Made by a program: the position numbers and the translations under genes. From the IMG/VR virus record IMGVR_UViG_3300008255_000398, positions 1 through 27,456 of that record: a stretch of DNA of 27,456 nt, one strand, 5' to 3'. Positions within the stretch are counted from its first letter, which is position 1, and each line of letters begins with the position of its first letter. Under the pieces are notes generated by a model. It saw nothing but the letters and a program-made list of their open reading frames with translations. It was not told the origin of the DNA and made no database searches. The stretch is from a virus. Lineage: Duplodnaviria; Caudoviricetes. This document shows positions 3,749-20,384 of the stretch, one piece after another.

Positions 3749-3825
3749 AATTTTTTTCCCTCCAAGGTTAATATTAGAGTTTAGCACTCTATAAAAGGCC
3801 CTTGAGGCCTTCTAACAATCCTAAA

Positions 3826-4311
3826 CTATTCAATTTCAGGCTGATTTTTTCGCCCTGCTTTAACTGTCTGTGAACCATATGTATTACGTATAGTTCCCAT
3901 GTCCCACGATCCCCGACTTTTGCACACGTACCACTCGGGTTTATAGTACCAACATTGTTTGACCTTATTCCACTTCAATTTAAGGGCCTTTAGATGGTCT
4001 TTAATCGGTTTTGTATCGCCCTTAACATAGAACCACCAACCACACACTTCAATTTCAATATTGGGATATTTCAACAGCTCATTGATGATATCGGCGAAAA
4101 TGTCGGCTTCCTTATGCTGGCTTGCTGTCTTTTTCTCTGTAAAGCCTTCATTCTCTGATACTCTGTCAATGGCATCATGATATTGGTTAAGCATTATCTT
4201 AAATTCTACATCATCACCATTATTTCTATCTGGATGCAGTTCAAGAGCTAATTTTCTATATCTCTGTTTAATTTCATCAATGGTATTACAATCATAAAAA
4301 TAATTTGTCAT
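3826..4311 (-). CDS. J-domain (DnaJ-like) protein
   Basis: N-terminal EIKQRYRKLALELHPDRNNGD with an intact HPD motif. The C-terminus (GWWFYVKGDTKPIKDHLK...W) is typical of phage J-domain proteins. Confidence 0.85.
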   Translation of the reverse strand: MTNYFYDCNTIDEIKQRYRKLALELHPDRNNGDDVEFKIMLNQYHDAIDRVSENEGFTEKKTASQHKEADIFADIINELLKYPNIEIEVCGWWFYVKGDTKPIKDHLKALKLKWNKVKQCWYYKPEWYVCKSRGSWDMGTIRNTYGSQTVKAGRKNQPEIE

Positions 4312-4383
4312 AGTTTTTTCCCTCCATAGGTTTAATATTAGAGTTCAATGACTCTATAAAAGGCCCTTAAGGCCTTCTAACAA

Positions 4384-4527
4384 TCATTGAATATATAAGT
4401 CGTTCCAATCATCCTGGTCTATCCAGTTAAGACCTAAACAACTTAGTAAAATATTGTGTTGTAGCAACGTGAAGTTGATATCATTATCACACATTTCAAG
4501 TATTACCTTTTTAAATATTTCAGCCAT
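4384..4527 (-). CDS. Small hypothetical protein (47 aa), not in the ORF track
   Basis: MAEIFKKVILEMCDNDINFTLLQHNILLSCLGLNWIDQDDWNDLYIQ*. GAGGTG RBS. Overlaps the upstream stop, and its TGA lies in a hairpin repeat. Confidence 0.6.
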   Translation of the reverse strand: MAEIFKKVILEMCDNDINFTLLQHNILLSCLGLNWIDQDDWNDLYIQ

Positions 4528-4666: not shown

Positions 4667-4741
4667 GATATTCCCTCCATAGGTTTTTATTAAGAGTTTT
4701 AACACTCTATAAAAGGCCCACGTAAAGGCCTTCTAACAATG

Positions 4742-5143
4742 CTAAACAGCGACTTGACTATCTTTCCAATTATCCAATAATTGGGGAATGTATTGTTTTG
4801 ACATTAAATCAAAGCTTACAAACCATTCATTTTCAATTTTTTCGAATTTAACAGTAAAAACGGCGTGTTTCCTATTGCCACTATCATACAAACCTTCCCA
4901 AATTGCTTTTATCCAGGGGAAATCAATACCTTGACTCGATACGTCTAAATTTGTCCCACATTCACGAACAAACCAGATATATTCTCTTTCATATTCTCTG
5001 TCATGTTGCATGTTATTAAAGTTATTAGCCAGTCTTAAATAATCAATTTCAATATCATTCTTATAATATTTCACATAGCTATTAGCGGTTAATAACATTG
5101 TCTCCCTGAATTCTACTAGATTCCCATTTTCTAATTTAATCAT
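4742..5143 (-). CDS. Hypothetical protein (133 aa), first gene of the leftward array
   Basis: GGAGGG RBS. TAG stop lies in a hairpin repeat. Confidence 0.75.
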   Translation of the reverse strand: MIKLENGNLVEFRETMLLTANSYVKYYKNDIEIDYLRLANNFNNMQHDREYEREYIWFVRECGTNLDVSSQGIDFPWIKAIWEGLYDSGNRKHAVFTVKFEKIENEWFVSFDLMSKQYIPQLLDNWKDSQVAV

Positions 5144-8835: not shown

Positions 8836-9093
8836 GTGGAAAATATGATAGTTGATGATCTGCCAAGGTCAGAGGATGATTTTGACAAGCCAGAACTTAA
8901 GGACGAGGATGTTTTTGACATTAACATTAATGAGAAGGAGAACGACAAGTATATTAATTTTGAGCCTACAGGAGGGGAACCTGTATGTCCAGCATGTGGA
9001 TTTATGTTAAATAGTGAGAATGAGATATGGTGTCCATTTTGTGGGTACAATGTACTGTTAGATTATGAATGTGAGGAGGATATTGATTTATGA
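8836..9093 (+). CDS. Acidic Zn-ribbon protein
   Basis: CPACG...CPFCG. AGGAGG RBS (start may be ATG 8845). ATGA overlap with the next gene. Confidence 0.7.
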   Translation: MENMIVDDLPRSEDDFDKPELKDEDVFDININEKENDKYINFEPTGGEPVCPACGFMLNSENEIWCPFCGYNVLLDYECEEDIDL

Positions 9094-9425
9094 AGGACAT
9101 GGGATTTGAAACAATATTAGAAAGGGCACAGAAAGAAAAAACGAAAGCTTTGGTATTTACTGGAAACAAGAAATATTCTTATTTTATTGACAGATTATTG
9201 GAATTAGGAGAGGTTAGGAGAGAGAAGCCTAATCGTTATGTTTTGCCAAATGGATCATGGATACAAATTGCAGTTAACGTTAAGACTTTGCCTGAAACTT
9301 ATAACTATGCTGGATATGAAGTTGACGCAATATATATTGATGAAATAACTGATATGGACCATCAAGCATTGGAATATTTAAGTACATTAATAAGGTCATC
9401 TGGAGGTGAAGCGAAAGATGAATAA
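9090..9425 (+). CDS. Truncated terminase-ATPase-like protein (Walker B region only)
   Basis: LPNGSWIQI...YAGYEVDAIYIDEITDM...EYLSTLIRS aligns with TerL FPNGARIKL...YQGQEYDVIGFEEATGF...QFVSTCLRS. No Walker A motif. Confidence 0.65.
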   Translation: MKDMGFETILERAQKEKTKALVFTGNKKYSYFIDRLLELGEVRREKPNRYVLPNGSWIQIAVNVKTLPETYNYAGYEVDAIYIDEITDMDHQALEYLSTLIRSSGGEAKDE

Positions 9426-10665
9426 GGTTGTAAAGGTCCAAGTATTCACTGAGAACAAAGAGATATACAAGATCATACATGAACTTATGTTTGAAACTAG
9501 AAAGTTACAGAATAAGGCCATTTGTGCGATGTATGAGTGGTCCGACTTTAAGTTTGAATATAAGGATAAGCATGGGACATATCCGAAGCCTTATGAAATC
9601 CTGGAGAAGAAAAAAGGAGATGGCGAAGAGTTTTACAAAACTGTGGGTGGGTATATTGATATGCACACCAGGGAACTTTTCTATAAGAATATTTCCAACA
9701 ATTCAAGCTCAGCTATAATGGAAGCTATGAAGCTTTTTAAGGCTAAAGAGAAGGACATGCAAAAGTGCTTATGTACATTGCCATTTTACCGCCAGAGCAA
9801 TAAAATAAACCTGCATAAACAGGTTATGAATATGTTTAAAAATGATGGGAAATATTTTATTGATGTTGGACTTATTTCTCAGAAATATAAAAGAGAATTA
9901 GAATTAACATCTGGACGATTTTTATTAACCATGTGTATCAATGATAACAGCCAGAAAACTATAGTTAATAGAATACTAAACGGTGAATATAGCTTATGTG
10001 AGAGTGAGCTGAGGTATGTAAAACGGCTTAAGAAGTTCTTTATATACCTTACATATGGATTTGACCAGGTCCAATTTAAGACCGGTAATAATGTTTTGGG
10101 TGTAGACATAGGAATCAAGTATCCTGTCTACATAGCTCTAAAAGACAGTTTGAAGCGTTGGCATGTGAGTGGTGACGAGATTGGAGCCTTTAGAAAACAG
10201 GTAGAAAAAAGGCGATATGCTAAGAGAAAGCAAAGGCTTGTATGTGGTGACGCAAGCCGCAAACATGGGCGTGGTAGACATTTGAAGCCTGTTACAGATA
10301 TTGGAGATAAAGTCGCTAGATTTAAAGATCGGATCAATCACAAATATAGTAGTTTTATAATTGATATTGCAAAAAAGAATAATGTTGCTATAATAAAGAT
10401 GGAAGATTTGACCGGGATAAATGATGATGTCAAATTTCTTAAAAACTGGCCCTATTATGACCTACAAAGTAAGATTAAATATAAAGCCGAGGCGGTAGGC
10501 ATAGTAGTTGAATTGGTAAATCCTGCATTTGACACTAAAGAGTGTAGCAAGTGCGGTCATATAGAATCAGGAAACATAAAGCCACAAGAGACATTTAGAT
10601 GTGAATCTTGTGGATTCGAAGCTCAAAAGAACTACAATTCGGCATTAGTTATAGCCAACAGATAA
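9418..10665 (+). CDS. cas12f: Cas12f/TnpB-family RNA-guided protein (415 aa), probably nuclease-inactive
   Basis: RuvC-I VLGVDIG, RuvC-II IKMEDL, NWPYYDLQSKIKYKA, Zn finger CSKC...CESC. RuvC-III reads QKNYNSALVIA instead of NADxNAAxNIA. GGAGGTG RBS before ATG 9418. Confidence 0.85.
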   Translation: MNKVVKVQVFTENKEIYKIIHELMFETRKLQNKAICAMYEWSDFKFEYKDKHGTYPKPYEILEKKKGDGEEFYKTVGGYIDMHTRELFYKNISNNSSSAIMEAMKLFKAKEKDMQKCLCTLPFYRQSNKINLHKQVMNMFKNDGKYFIDVGLISQKYKRELELTSGRFLLTMCINDNSQKTIVNRILNGEYSLCESELRYVKRLKKFFIYLTYGFDQVQFKTGNNVLGVDIGIKYPVYIALKDSLKRWHVSGDEIGAFRKQVEKRRYAKRKQRLVCGDASRKHGRGRHLKPVTDIGDKVARFKDRINHKYSSFIIDIAKKNNVAIIKMEDLTGINDDVKFLKNWPYYDLQSKIKYKAEAVGIVVELVNPAFDTKECSKCGHIESGNIKPQETFRCESCGFEAQKNYNSALVIANR

Positions 10666-10674
10666 GCAGTTTAC

Positions 10675-10792
10675 GGGCTGACTTGACAGCCTTAAAGCGA
10701 GACAGGGGTTCGCCCCTGTACTCTGCTAAGTCGTGATTACGCCGACATCCCAGGTGTGTGCCTGGCAATTAATATAAAAAACTGTTTTGAAG
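10675..10792 (+). ncRNA. tracrRNA/omegaRNA-like scaffold, copy A
   Basis: Starts 10 nt after the cas12f stop. Stems GGCTG/CAGCC, ACAGGGG-TTCG-CCCCTGT, GTCG/CGAC and CCAGG/CCTGG. Homologous to 18796-18913 with compensatory changes. Confidence 0.75.
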
Positions 10793-12558
10793 ATGGTATT
10801 ATAATTGGCGAATTGAAGAGTTTATAAAGTATTTGAGTTGAAGTAAATGGTGGGCATGATAATGTTTGAAGTAAATGTAAAGAATGATAATGTTTGAAGT
10901 ATGATCATATAATGAGCTAAGGTTTGAAGATAGGAAAACATATAATAAAGTTTTAAGCGGTGGAATATTTGAAGAAATACATTATCGGTTGAAGATAGTG
11001 TGGTAGTTGTTTGAAGAAGTGAGTGAGATAGAGGGAAAGTTTGAAGCGATAGAGGGAAATTTTGAAGATAGGTAATTAATTGATATTATGTTTGAAGTAT
11101 ATAGTAAGATGATAATGTTTGAAGTATATTAGTAAACTTAAAGAACTTGAAGAATAATCTTGCATTTGAAGATGTGTTATTGAAGAAGATGTGTTATTGA
11201 AGAATTTTATATTTTGAAGATATGAAGCTTTATATTATTGAAGATATGGAACTAATAATAATTGTTGAAGAGGTTTGTGGGAGTTAATTGGAGATTTGAA
11301 GATTTATTTAGAAGATTATATAAATTATCTAATGTTGAAGATGGGATAAAGCATGTAAAATTTGAAGAGAAGAAAATTATGAGATATTGAAGGTTGAAGT
11401 TTAAGTTTATAATGCATTAGGCAATGTTGAAGTTGAAGGTTTGGATGATGTCTTTATTGAAGAATGTAAGTATCCCATTTGTTGAAATTGAAGGATATGT
11501 CTATTGTTTATTATTGAAGATGTAAGTATGGTATGGTGATATTGAAGGCTATATAGTGTAGTTGAAGAAGGAAATTAGAATATGCTTTATTGAAGTTTAA
11601 ATACATTTATGTCTGTTGAAGGCTATTGAAGAAAGAAAAGATGTTGTTTCTGATTAATTGAAAGTAAGCTAATATAGTGTGTTGAAGAAGGAGAAATATT
11701 GAAGAAACCTAATAAGACAGTTGAAGAAATGGATATTGAAGAAACTAATGGCATTACAATATGTTGAAGAAATAATTTGAAGATGATATGTATAAGCAGA
11801 ATTGAAGATAGTTGTCTAAGGTATGTTGAAGAGAGTATATGTTGAAGATAGGTATATTGAAGTAATAAAGAGAGATTATAGTTGAAGAAAATGTTTAAGC
11901 TATATATTGAAGATTGTTAAGGATTGATTGGATTGAAGATGGAATTTGATTGAAGTATAATGAGTGTAATTGAAGGATTAAATAAATGTAAATTGAAGTA
12001 AGATACTATTTATAAGTTGAAGATACAAATTATTATTTACTATTGAAGATATTATTTGGAATTATTGAAGAATGGGAAGTATTGAAGATATTTATTGAAG
12101 AATGTTATGTTTTATCTAGTTGAAGATAGAATTGAAGAATGTATTGTTTTATGAAGTTGAAGAATATGTATACCCTCTATAGTTGAAGATTGCTATTATA
12201 AAATAATTGAAGAAAATATATTATACACCCAAATTGAAGACCCAAAAATTGAAGGCAAATATATATGATTGAAGAATGTGCAATGTTATTGAAGGATAGA
12301 ATAATTGAAGAGTATAGTTAATATTAATTGAAGTTTATGCTAAGAGATGATTGAAGAGAATGAAATGATTGAAGAAGATAAAATTTACTGATGATTGAAG
12401 GTTAAGATTTATATTTTATTGAAGAGATATAATAATAGTATTTAGTTGAAGATTAAAAATGTGTTATATTGAAGAGAATGAAAATAATAATAGTATTTGA
12501 TTGAAGAAGAGCAATGATTGAAGAGATAGTACTAATTGAAGAAGGTTTATAATTGAAG
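10787..12558 (+). CRISPR. Non-canonical array of about 77 TTGAAG hexamers with variable spacers (mean period about 23 nt)
   Basis: Manual count of 77 exact copies on the + strand, and I saw none on the - strand. No ORF. Bounded by the scaffold RNA and a terminator. The repeat itself is certain, while the CRISPR role is inferred. Confidence 0.65.
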
Positions 12559-12601: not shown

Positions 12602-12652
12602 TTATGCAAAAAAGTCTGTACTCAGAGCGGAGTACAGGCTTTTTATGCATAA
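12602..12652. terminator. Bidirectional intrinsic terminator closing the array
   Basis: TTATGCAAAAAAGTCTGTACTC-AGAGCG-GAGTACAGGCTTTTTATGCATAA inverted repeat with A/T tracts. Confidence 0.8.
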
Positions 12653-12789: not shown

Positions 12790-13245
12790 ATGGATAAAAT
12801 AAATTATGAAAATCTATATAAAAAAGCATATACAGGTAAAGAATCAAGTTATGAAATATTTGAAAAGTGGGCAAAATCAAGGAACATTATTAAATTTATT
12901 AAAAAAACAGGATCATGGAAGCAGATAACAAAAAATGGTATAAGAGGAAAGTTCCAAAACAGAGGGTATGAAAAAATGCCATTATCGGATCATACATCTG
13001 TATGGAAAGATAAGACAGGGAAAAAAATTCTTATTAGTCAGCCATATGAATATTATCCAGGTGATATGATGTCTTGTTTTGCTCCACCTAATATATATTG
13101 TGATGAAGAGCGTTCCCAAAAAAACTTTAATGAATTAAAAACATGGTGTAATGAAAGAAATTTAGAAGTAACGTTCTATGATTCAACAAATAGTTGGTAT
13201 TATCCATTCAATGCTATATTAATTGAAATAAGACAAAAAGAATAG
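12790..13245 (+). CDS. Hypothetical protein (151 aa)
   Basis: GGGGTG RBS. Motifs DHTSVW, ISQPY and SWYYP. Confidence 0.75.
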   Translation: MDKINYENLYKKAYTGKESSYEIFEKWAKSRNIIKFIKKTGSWKQITKNGIRGKFQNRGYEKMPLSDHTSVWKDKTGKKILISQPYEYYPGDMMSCFAPPNIYCDEERSQKNFNELKTWCNERNLEVTFYDSTNSWYYPFNAILIEIRQKE

Positions 13246-17205: not shown

Positions 17206-17923
17206 TGAAGTTCGAATGAAGATGATTGAAGAGGCAGCAAAAGCAGGAGCGACTTATGTAAAATGGCAGCTTTATAATTCCGATTTTATCAATGAAGAAT
17301 ATCCTAATTATGAAGTTGTAAAAATGAACATGAAAAGATGTGAACTTACGCCATTAGCAGTAAGTAACATCATGAGGAAATCTCAGGATATGAATGTTAT
17401 CCCGATGTTTACCATCTTTAATATTGACAGGCTTGCATTATTGCAGGGATGGCCGCCTACTGCTATGGCTGTTAAGATAGCAAGCCCGGACCTATTGAAT
17501 TATTCTTTAGTAAATGCAGTAAGGTCCAAATTTAAAGATTCAGAAATGTTCATTAGTGCTGGTATGCACAATGAAGAAGAGATTGAAAACGCTAGATATA
17601 GGTATAGTGATTTAAAACTTAAATGGTTGTATTGTGTTTCGAAATATCCAGCACATAAAGAAGATATATCATACATTGATATGAGAAGCTTTGACGGATT
17701 TTCAGACCATACAGAAGGCATCGATTGCGCTTGTCTAGCAATAGATATTAATCAGCCAACGTATATTGAAAAGCATTTTACATTGTCTAAGTTACTTCCT
17801 GGGAAAGACCAGGAAATTAGTATTGATCCGGAAGAACTTAAAAGGTTAGTAGTTCATTCTGGATATCATATTAATAACTACAATTATAAAAGGAGATTTA
17901 AAGAAATTGGAATATCTAGTTGA
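17153..17923 (+). CDS. neuB: N-acetylneuraminate/nonulosonate synthase family (NeuB), no C-terminal AFL domain
   Basis: ECCNNHLG, VKWQ, KIASPD, ISAGM, YCVSKYP, GFSDHT, IEKHFTL. Confidence 0.9.
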   Translation: MEKTKIIVECCNNHLGLDEVRMKMIEEAAKAGATYVKWQLYNSDFINEEYPNYEVVKMNMKRCELTPLAVSNIMRKSQDMNVIPMFTIFNIDRLALLQGWPPTAMAVKIASPDLLNYSLVNAVRSKFKDSEMFISAGMHNEEEIENARYRYSDLKLKWLYCVSKYPAHKEDISYIDMRSFDGFSDHTEGIDCACLAIDINQPTYIEKHFTLSKLLPGKDQEISIDPEELKRLVVHSGYHINNYNYKRRFKEIGISS

Positions 17924-18776
17924 AGAGAGAAGTTGTCCTATTTGTAATAAGTATGATTCGTCAGTAATGTGGAAGAAAAGCCCTTTGACAAAATATAGTA
18001 AGACTATAATGGATTATGAAGATATGATTCATGGCGAAAATCATATATGTCACATATGTGGGATGGTATATGAAAAGTATCCAATGATTTCTTCCTGCCT
18101 GGATGAATTTTATCAAAAGGATGAAGAAAAAGGGATAAGTCCTTACCGTGAAATCTATTCGTATACTATGAATAGCATATACCTTCATTTTGCGCATACT
18201 GTGCAATATTGCAAAGAGGTATTAAAGAAAGAAAACTTTGGTGATTGGTTAGACATTGGAAGTGGTGATCCATGGATAACTAAAGAAATGCAAAAATATG
18301 GTTCTGGATGGAGTTGGGACCCTGGATTTGATCACACAAGAAATTTCAAGAGCGATCCAAGAAGTAGATTTGACTTGGTCACATGTATGAACATGCTTGA
18401 ACATGTCTATGCTCCTATAGAGTTTTTACAAAACATGCATCCACTGGTTTCTAACTTTGGTAACCTTATTCTATGTGTACCATATGTGTACACTAATAGT
18501 ATTACTATGCATAAAGACCAATGGTTTAGTAACGCTCATATACATCATTTTGACATTAATTCTTTAGATAATACCTGCTTATTAGCAGGATGGAAGATTG
18601 ATAGTGTTCAATTGCTTTATGAAGAGATGGGACAGAAGATATATGTTAGATGTAAGAAAATTAGGCCTAAACAGCCTGTATTTAATTTTAATAAAGAAAA
18701 AGTTAGCAGAGCAAAAGATTTTATCTCACTTCAAAATCAAGTTTGGCTGGCTGGAAATGATATGAAGGTAGTTTAA
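17907..18776 (+). CDS. Class I SAM-dependent methyltransferase with N-terminal Zn finger
   Basis: CPIC...CHICG, WLDIGSG, FDLVTCMNMLEHV, HIHHF. TTG start after AGGAG. Confidence 0.85.
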   Translation: MEYLVEERSCPICNKYDSSVMWKKSPLTKYSKTIMDYEDMIHGENHICHICGMVYEKYPMISSCLDEFYQKDEEKGISPYREIYSYTMNSIYLHFAHTVQYCKEVLKKENFGDWLDIGSGDPWITKEMQKYGSGWSWDPGFDHTRNFKSDPRSRFDLVTCMNMLEHVYAPIEFLQNMHPLVSNFGNLILCVPYVYTNSITMHKDQWFSNAHIHHFDINSLDNTCLLAGWKIDSVQLLYEEMGQKIYVRCKKIRPKQPVFNFNKEKVSRAKDFISLQNQVWLAGNDMKVV

Positions 18777-18795
18777 TGGGTGATGAATGGTAATA

Positions 18796-18913
18796 GGTTA
18801 ACTCGATAACCTTAAGGCGAGGCTGGAAAAATTTATTCTTGCACTCTGCCAAGCCGTGAGTATACCGGCATCCCAGGCGTGTGCCTGGCAAATTTAATAT
18901 ATGTTAAGACTAG
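18796..18913 (+). ncRNA. tracrRNA-like scaffold, copy B, with anti-repeat
   Basis: Aligns with 10676-10776. The 3' segment AATATATGTTAAGACTAG (18896-18913) is imperfectly complementary to the adjacent repeats, including G-U pairs. Confidence 0.75.
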
Positions 18914-18924
18914 TGTTTGTGCTG

Positions 18925-19085
18925 GTTTAGTACTAACATGTGTTGACTTGGAGGCTGGATGTTACAAAACTTAATAACATAATATCCAGGTTTAGTACTA
19001 ACATGTGTTTTGTTGGAGGATGCTGCTTACTGCACCAATTAAATATAATCCTGGCAGTTTAGTACTAACATATGTTTAGTTGGAG
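18925..19085 (+). CRISPR. Mini CRISPR array: three 29-nt repeats and two spacers (36 and 38 nt)
   Basis: GTTTAGTACTAACATRTGTTnnnTTGGAG at 18925-18953, 18990-19018 and 19057-19085. Confidence 0.88.
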
Positions 19086-19163
19086 CTAGAAGATTTACAC
19101 CAAATTTGGAGAGTTGAAGCTAAAGTAAATAGACATTTTAATAACATTATAAGGAGCGACAGT

Positions 19164-20384
19164 ATGAATAAACAATTTAAGAAAGACAGAACAGGAAAGT
19201 ATGTATTAGAGAGCAATATAAAACCACCAGAAGGTCCAGAAATAGCGGAAGTATCTGCTATACCTAAAGGTGAGCTATGTGTAAAGGTAGAGGATATATC
19301 TGATATATCGTTACCAGAAGAAGTGCTAAAAGTAAAAAAGGCTGATAAGCTTGCCATTGTTGGGTTTGCTCCTAGCTGGAACTTAGCTCCTTTTGATGAT
19401 AAAGAGTTTGATGTTTGGGGAATTAACGAATTATATGTCTTGGCAGTAAATAAAAGGTTTACAGGTTGGTTTGAAATTCATGATCCTTGGTCACCTTCCA
19501 GGAACAATGCGAATCATCACAATTTTTTAAAAACCTGTACTATCCCTTTATTTATGCAGAGACATTATGGCGAATTCCCCAATAGTCTTGAATTCCCACG
19601 TAAACAGGTCAAAAACTTTTTTAACCAGAATATTATTATTGGCAATGTTGGATCATACTACACAGATTATAGTAACCAAATAACCTGGATGAATGGTCTT
19701 GCTATAATGCTCGGATATAAAGAAATTCATGTGTATGGCGTTGATATGGCTCAATCGAGTGAATATGCTTGGCAAAGAGCAGCATGTCAATTTATGATAG
19801 GCTATGCCCTTGGAGCTGGAATCAAAGTGCTTATCCCTAAAAATAGTGAGTTATGCAAATATCCTCGTGACTATGGTTGGGAAACAGACAATTATCAAAG
19901 GAACTTGAAGAAACAAAGAATCAAGGATGTTGGAAATAGAATTCAGCATATCGAGAATGCAATCATTGAACAGGATTATTATAAAGATGCTTTTGCAACT
20001 GAAAACAAGAGAGCTAATGACGATTATAACAATAAAATCAATCAGCTTAAATTAAGGGTTGTGAAACTTCAAACCATGCTTGAGAAGAATTCTGATATTA
20101 ACAGGATTATAACTACTATGCCTAAAGATATGAAAGAGCTTGAAACAAAGACACCTGAAATTCTTGGCAAGGTAGCTAAAGAAAATGAAACTGTTGAGGC
20201 AGAATTGAAGGCTTTAGAACAGGATATAACTGCTCTTAGGACTGAAAGAGAGCAAGTCAACAAGCAACATTTTATCCAGATGCAAATATTGGACCTTAAC
20301 AAAAAGAATCATACTACATCAAAAAGCTTACATCAGGGTTGTCTTGATGAATGCAAACATGATTTAGCAAATAACTTAGTGTGA
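19164..20384 (+). CDS. Putative nonulosonate/sialyl-transferase-like (Maf/DUF115-type fold) protein with C-terminal coiled coil
   Basis: LAIVGFAPS, VWGINE and AIMLGYKEIHVYGVDM motifs. ATG 19164 follows AGGAG, whereas the TTG at 19080 lies inside a CRISPR repeat. Confidence 0.6.
   Translation: MNKQFKKDRTGKYVLESNIKPPEGPEIAEVSAIPKGELCVKVEDISDISLPEEVLKVKKADKLAIVGFAPSWNLAPFDDKEFDVWGINELYVLAVNKRFTGWFEIHDPWSPSRNNANHHNFLKTCTIPLFMQRHYGEFPNSLEFPRKQVKNFFNQNIIIGNVGSYYTDYSNQITWMNGLAIMLGYKEIHVYGVDMAQSSEYAWQRAACQFMIGYALGAGIKVLIPKNSELCKYPRDYGWETDNYQRNLKKQRIKDVGNRIQHIENAIIEQDYYKDAFATENKRANDDYNNKINQLKLRVVKLQTMLEKNSDINRIITTMPKDMKELETKTPEILGKVAKENETVEAELKALEQDITALRTEREQVNKQHFIQMQILDLNKKNHTTSKSLHQGCLDECKHDLANNLV

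Follow-up and report, generated by a model that had tools for sequence, protein, structure and literature searches.

The window that we have analysed, that is, the whole stretch of 27,456 nt, is a single phage contig that encodes a terminase, a portal protein and a cluster for sugar synthesis (NeuB, cytidylyltransferase, dehydrogenase and methyltransferase). Within this cluster lies a small RNA cassette, here called B, that spans 18796-19085 and comprises a tracrRNA with an anti-repeat, then three 29-nt repeats (Table 1). The only cas12f gene detected in the contig is elsewhere and is followed by a second scaffold, A, and by a large array of hexamers. The original prediction, made from the sequence alone, had set B inside the sugar genes with no adjacent cas gene, and this holds, the nearest cas12f ending 8.1 kb upstream. 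Its repeat, spacer and hexamer coordinates, the 29-nt repeats, the 36- and 38-nt spacers and the 20-nt gap all check out as well. The anti-repeat that it gave as 18896-18913 is indeed present, but is somewhat longer (18889-18913).

Table 1. Position and strand of cassette B, its flanking genes and the related features of the phage contig.
Feature	Position	Strand	Evidence or remark
Cas12f1-like gene, likely in-trans partner	9406..10665	+	ends 8.1 kb upstream of B
Scaffold A, paralogous to B	10674..10786	+	loop CUU at 10682-10684; anti-repeat mostly deleted
Large hexamer array	10787..12558	+	77 TTGAAG, 1 TTGGAG
Methyltransferase gene of sugar cluster, upstream of B	17907..18776	+	sequence searches
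tracrRNA stem 1 of B	18796..18811	+	fold; compensatory pairs vs A and L186; loop/repeat-end covariation
Stem-1 loop of B	18801..18806 (CUC 18802-18804)	+	predicted to form a pseudoknot with the repeat end, GAG
tracrRNA stems 2-4 of B	18816..18888 (18816-18850, 18853-18869, 18873-18888)	+	fold and covariation
Anti-repeat of B	18889..18913	+	duplex with repeats 1-3; homologous stretch in L186/L187
11-nt linker, anti-repeat to repeat 1	18914..18924	+	fold; L186/L187 comparison
Repeat 1 of B, 29 nt	18925..18953	+	in runs X2 and X3 present twice, with one more spacer in between
Spacer 1 of B, 36 nt	18954..18989	+	target searches without match
Repeat 2 of B, 29 nt	18990..19018	+	
Spacer 2 of B, 38 nt	19019..19056	+	target searches without match
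Repeat 3 of B, 29 nt	19057..19085	+	
20-nt guide-length segment after repeat 3	19086..19105	+	target searches without match
Bare hexamers after B	19106..19119 (TTGGAG 19106-19111, TTGAAG 19114-19119)	+	
406-aa gene downstream of B, without known family	19164..20384	+	homologue in L303 cluster

The stretch 18796-18953 folds into four stems and an anti-repeat:repeat hairpin (z -3.3). Although the three repeats differ from one another at positions 21-23, and repeat 3 additionally at position 16, the anti-repeat pairs with repeats 1, 2 and 3 at -16.5, -15.2 and -15.4 kcal/mol, respectively (p 0.002-0.004, 500 shuffles each). Joined by the linker, the anti-repeat and repeat 1 are predicted to form a natural single-guide hairpin in cis. 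Across eight scaffolds both sides change in 13/22 pairs, a level reached by 0/500 shuffles, and slid controls score far lower. An Rfam search yielded no family for B and 2 chance matches elsewhere, while sigma-70 promoter prediction over 18500-19300 found 0 promoters against 3.6 expected. Spacer 1 folds on itself at about -6 kcal/mol (the region was computed with an offset of one base), which could hinder its use as a guide.

The closest relatives of the phage Cas12f, those of L186 and L187, are 72% identical to it, have intact active-site motifs and belong to elements that also encode FtsK, integrase and Rep. Both loci carry the same scaffold, anti-repeat and linker, followed by 10 and 15 full repeats that end in TTGAAG. 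Scaffold identity is 83/107 for B-L186, 78/109 for B-L187, 74/107 for A-L186 and 72/108 for A-B. The pairing of stem-1 loop and repeat end is CUU:AAG in A, L186 and L187, and CUC:GAG in B, L121 and L123. By an automatic rule, the loop triplet complements the repeat end in 25/39 cassettes (42 cassettes were examined, 39 with an array, ignoring kinship between them), or in 18/32 unique combinations against a null mean of 7.6 (p 5e-5); the automatic end-calling mis-called several cassettes, B among them. In stem 1 of B the paired changes preserve the helix, the loop and the ends of all three repeats have changed together, and this family covariation predicts a CUC:GAG pseudoknot for B. Stem 1 and the pseudoknot are the conserved core of Cas12f1 guides (PMC12255294), whose tracrRNA is usually flanked by cas12f on one side and the array on the other (PMC8548392). 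Given the scaffold homology, the pairing and the L186/L187 cassettes beside cas12f, B is best regarded as a real type V-F1 cassette of a detached variety. The anti-repeat pairing, the match of loop and repeat end and the homology to Cas12f cassettes likewise imply that the B repeats depend on this scaffold.

A rather different origin could be proposed from the repeat and spacer lengths (29 nt and 36-38 nt), namely that the B repeats are a viral mini-array or repeat mimic serving a host class 1 (type I-B) system independently of the scaffold. The 5' half of the B repeat does resemble clostridial I-B repeats. Moreover, viruses commonly carry mini-arrays that make use of a host system (PMC11656645). 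Such a mimic would scarcely need the dedicated anti-repeat and covarying pseudoknot of B, and each related array that we found accompanies a Cas12f scaffold. BLAST of the B repeat against 399 genomes, a check proposed with the original prediction, gave no identical repeat, nor did a repeat model applied to three overlapping samples of ~150 Bacillota genomes (49 candidates scored in each, few per genome). The sole clear array in these samples is itself a Cas12f cassette, its repeat 21/29 identical to that of B. The host type I-B repeat that the original prediction had named as a threat to its own reading did not appear in the genomes searched; the type I-B reading is already largely refuted and we consider it very improbable.

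Other searches for relatives of B were less informative. The scaffold model had no match in 151 Clostridia-class genomes, a weak negative, and a scaffold motif scan of viral contigs gave 2 matches, both known loci adjoining cas12f. The 14-nt repeat motif occurs in at least 120 stretches of viral contigs, and among the matches listed none has two near-copies of the repeat. Genome G449 has 17 repeat-model matches, with no array in the two stretches inspected. A second "array", in G008 (L286 1500-1650), was rejected: it is a cluster of about six short palindromes without a scaffold and not a CRISPR. These palindromes contain the 10-nt palindrome of the B repeat.

The original prediction also held B to be the ancestral or intermediate state from which A arose. 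The layout of B is indeed that of L186/L187, but neither stem 1 nor the tree supports B as the ancestor of A or as a direct intermediate. Stem 1 of A is 22/23 identical to that of L186, while B has only 15/22, and A and B agree at 15/23. B is conserved at 13 columns in which A has changed, and A at 8 in which B has; 5 columns set A and B together apart from L186 and L187, and their stem 4 is 19/20 identical. The tree of A, B, L186 and L187 leaves their order of descent unresolved (p-AU 0.40, support only 68/17). On this sequence comparison B did not give rise to A but is its diverged paralogue. L192, L258 and L269 also have two tracr-array cassettes for a single cas12f, placed around or after the gene, with repeats that differ in L192 and L258.

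A detached Cas12f tracrRNA with a mini-array is by itself an uncommon layout with precedent. In 7 of 44 cassettes the distance to cas12f exceeds 1.5 kb, namely in B, three of L195, two of L265 and one of L201. The other six are 1.6-4.7 kb from their cas12f and have weak model E-values (0.02-0.36), yet their arrays have matching loops. RuvC-I is altered in L195 and L265, which are probably one lineage.

With respect to its surroundings, the sugar cluster of the related phage L303 is made up of similar types of genes, arranged somewhat differently, which abut one another and have no scaffold between them; this cassette-free cluster includes a homologue of the 406-aa protein (58% over 201 aa). 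Cassette B is thus an insertion in a phage sugar-gene cluster. The motif ATGAAT (start codon plus Asn) occurs at 18783-18788 and again at 19164-19169, on either side of B, as if the cassette had entered where the downstream gene begins, although this is a post hoc observation. Another phage, L121 (4972-8594), has an intact cas12f-tracr-mini-array directly before sugar-synthesis genes and among head genes, and is a second example of a Cas12f RNA in a phage sugar cluster. Elsewhere in our contig, a family of 44-51-nt intergenic repeats (D1, D9, D17) lies between minus-strand genes, at 2859-2936, 3786-3829, 4318-4394 and 4671-4748, and is possibly a repeated promoter or regulatory element.

DNA matching the window occurs in 2017 groundwater runs, three of them containing at least half of its words and one being perhaps the run from which the window came; no RNA data set was among the matches listed. 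In contigs from runs X2 and X3, the sequence returns from 18954 to 18925 by way of 36 different letters, which amounts to a fourth repeat-spacer unit at the tracr-proximal end of B with an identical repeat 1; the X1 contigs break at exactly this repeat. (X1-X3 are 2017 groundwater runs, possibly from one campaign, with a contig depth of 2-5.) The window may therefore under-count the B array, which is either longer or variable. Either an identical repeat was collapsed in the window or the population is mixed, and the contigs fit both.

BLAST of both spacers and of the 20-mer, as suggested with the original prediction, gave no protospacer match with a PAM in the sets searched. The whole unit found no target among phages and plasmids, and the single spacers and 20-mer reached at best E 0.1-2 against phages. 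In 2.18 Mb of loci there were only chance-level 20-mers with 3 mismatches, one of which falls inside the cas12f genes of L124/L189. The 20-mer (19086-19105) has three 18-nt matches in viral sequences, none of which extends; the 399 genomes gave two partial spacer matches of 21-26 nt; and self-targeting seeds of B or A spacers were no more frequent than in shuffles. In the L187 array (11403-12400), spacers 11, 13 and 14 match their own L187 element with 1-4 mismatches, and spacer 11 also matches L186 with 5, which points to conflict between sibling elements.

The lack of a target and of a predicted promoter, together with the mutual differences of the B repeats, might mean that B is merely a neutral, decaying relic of a cassette whose cas12f gene was deleted, its terminal hexamers being chance or debris; in line with this, an intact cassette stands before the sugar genes of L121. 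A relic would hardly be expected to retain the helix through paired changes in stem 1, to change its loop along with all three repeat ends, or to have an extra unit with an identical repeat in two runs. Moreover, tblastn detected no cas12f remnant near B. We regard decay as quite unlikely.

The two bare hexamers beyond repeat 3 require a more guarded interpretation. Two TTG[AG]AG motifs within 40 nt occur in 26/60,934 control tiles, and a TTGGAG 17-24 nt from a repeat has p of about 0.002, both being post hoc estimates; the terminal hexamers exceed chance, but may be coincidence. The 14-nt arrangement of two hexamers is common to 11288 and 19106, with 0 cases in 4.3 Mb of controls, again post hoc. 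The original prediction had given the tail the format of the large array; it is above chance but shows no special likeness to array A, and a derivation from A was dropped because the alignment is no better than with 24 other TTGAAG stretches. Two further candidates failed as well: a decayed fourth full repeat downstream of B was rejected (p 0.54-0.87), and local duplication of the end of repeat 3 is unsupported (p 0.83). We lean slightly towards the first hexamer, TTGGAG, being what is left of the 3' end of a fourth repeat after a deletion. The rarity of the hexamers, the position of TTGGAG at guide length and the shortening in relatives (a 22-nt spacer in L121, a short spacer and 5'-truncated repeat in L123, a single repeat in L188) speak for a collapse in progress; against it counts that the second hexamer starts only 2 nt after the first. 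Single hexamers do arise by chance, since TTGAAG is internal to 1/23 L186/L187 spacers.

In the large array, where the hexamers are separated by gaps of 0-50 nt, the C content is only 4.8%. Scaffold A has just 10 nt between AATATA and the first TTGAAG, and its matching stretch shows no significant pairing with B or L186 repeats (p 0.09-0.68). To say that A has no anti-repeat, as had been done, is therefore nearly right; however, a purine directly precedes TTGAAG in 61/77 units (46.6 expected, p 0.0004), as if two or three pairs persisted, and A may keep 2-3 proximal anti-repeat pairs. The proposed joint loss is borne out, A being without both the anti-repeat and the repeat body that are full-length in L186/L187. 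The first base is A in 54/77 units of array A, but G or C in the spacers of full repeats (25/25 in L186/L187, 3/3 in B); these A-starting, C-poor units are thus not simply trimmed units of the B type. Just 3' of the array, at 12605-12650, is an inverted repeat with flanking A and T runs that resembles a terminator. No hexamer-type array was seen among the other cas12f loci compared, and a search of mostly open-access literature found no paper on hexamer-collapsed arrays or on a phage whose Cas12f tracr-array is detached.

The best PDB matches of the phage effector are Cas12f1 chains (E 7e-81). In the alignment with 7wju, presumably AsCas12f1 to judge from its 422-aa length, Arg383 and Asp401 correspond to Ile and Asn. 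The first RuvC Asp and the Glu are kept, while the RuvC-III Asp has become Asn and the TNB Arg has become Ile; most relatives retain the Arg and Asp altered here. In Un1Cas12f1, R490 and D510 are needed for cleavage (PMC8053092), and from the motif we infer that these are the equivalents of the two replaced residues. With two active-site residues replaced, binding without cutting is likely, and the phage Cas12f is probably nuclease-dead, a feature that the original prediction overlooked. Altered RuvC motifs are also seen in other members of the clade (P0005, P0008/L127, P0011, L195 and L265), which suggests repeated inactivation.

Alternatively, B could be real but serve another, nuclease-active Cas12f, encoded either by a second phage gene or by a co-resident element of the L186/L187 type, which the phage would re-target or decoy. 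B is nearer to L186 (83/107) than to A (72/108), L186 and L187 have an intact Cas12f along with FtsK, integrase and Rep genes, and the repeat of L186 is a further pairing partner of the B anti-repeat (-10.8 kcal/mol, p 0.024). Furthermore, a 51.8-kb contig encodes the same Cas12f protein as the 27.5-kb window contig; about half of the phage may therefore be missing from the window, and a second cas12f may exist outside our view. On the other hand, the 5 columns shared by A and B and their nearly identical stem 4 (19/20) hint at a duplication within this lineage, if only with a support of 68/17, and the Clostridia-class genomes, weak negative as they are, provided no match to the scaffold model. 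This possibility appears unlikely to us. We prefer, with moderate confidence, to view B as a self-contained type V-F1 (Cas12f1) guide cassette whose effector is encoded elsewhere and reads it in trans, the phage Cas12f being the most likely candidate. The original prediction of use in trans agrees with this, as a Cas12f tracr-array cassette so placed can work only in trans. Nevertheless, stem 1 of B differs from that of the gene-adjacent cassette (15/23), and its loading on the phage Cas12f is not assured.

Several known systems share features with this arrangement. In the type V-F1 systems of AsCas12f1 and SpCas12f1, as in B, the long tracrRNA comprises stem 1, pseudoknot, side stems and anti-repeat and directly precedes the array, with which it shares the strand (PMC8548392, PMC12255294), but B has no adjacent cas12f, and here there are two scaffolds with different pseudoknot triplets and an effector with two replacements. 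Stand-alone guides that act in trans, without an adjacent effector, are known from TnpB (omega-RNAs) and from the orphan gRNAs of dCas12f-sigmaE; the same reports describe Cas12f inactivation followed by minimisation of the array to a half repeat, and engineered Cas12f guides that tolerate loss of the duplex (PMC10691335, PMC12259090). B differs from these guides in its separate tracrRNA and anti-repeat, its full repeats and its spacers of acquired length. Nor does a sigma factor gene accompany the phage cas12f, since none of the ORFs next to it (9090-9425, 8836-9093 and 12790-13245) had a sigma match, and shrinkage here takes the form of many hexamers behind one scaffold and not of duplicated fused guides. 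Virus-borne mini-arrays (PMC11656645; 10.1101/2023.03.03.530964) are, like B, short viral arrays with no adjacent cas gene and a probable role in competition between elements; they copy the host repeat without a tracrRNA, whereas B has its own tracrRNA and a Cas12f-type repeat. A further parallel is with the gut Cas12f elements L195, L265 and L201, each of which also has a tracrRNA and mini-array separated by several kb from its cas12f; these have full repeats throughout, and no collapsed hexamer array was present there among the loci compared.

How might such a cassette operate? Read-through of the late packaging/sugar operon would transcribe the tracrRNA and array together. Repeat 1 would be paired by the anti-repeat in cis, repeats 2-3 by that of separate transcripts; trimming would fall to RNases of the host (presumably RNase III), and the CUC:GAG pseudoknot would set the register of a guide of about 20 nt. 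The resulting complex would act by binding and blocking DNA, be it a competing element's or the host's, and not by cutting it, while host Cas1-Cas2 would add spacers at the tracr-proximal end. A more elaborate scheme, which we offer tentatively and find on balance doubtful, is that the nuclease-dead Cas12f runs two guide channels distinguished by a 3-bp pseudoknot (CUU:AAG for A, CUC:GAG for B), with B as the one still able to take up new spacers, growing tracr-proximally while deletion collapses its oldest end to a 20-nt guide plus hexamer. If so, the route of repeat collapse to a hexamer-only CRISPR format would have been caught in progress, and cross-talk would be one-way, because B guides can wobble onto scaffold A while A hexamers mismatch scaffold B.

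Since the gene-adjacent unit has shrunk to six-letter repeats and B retains full ones, both guide designs are present in one genome. B is thereby a natural full-length control for the hexamer array, with one genome and one effector, with and without the anti-repeat:repeat duplex. This side-by-side arrangement makes it possible to test both pseudoknot-only loading of guides and the insulation of guide channels by a triplet, and is relevant to the shrinkage of CRISPR arrays as Cas12f loses its nuclease activity, as well as to the design of compact multiplexed guides.
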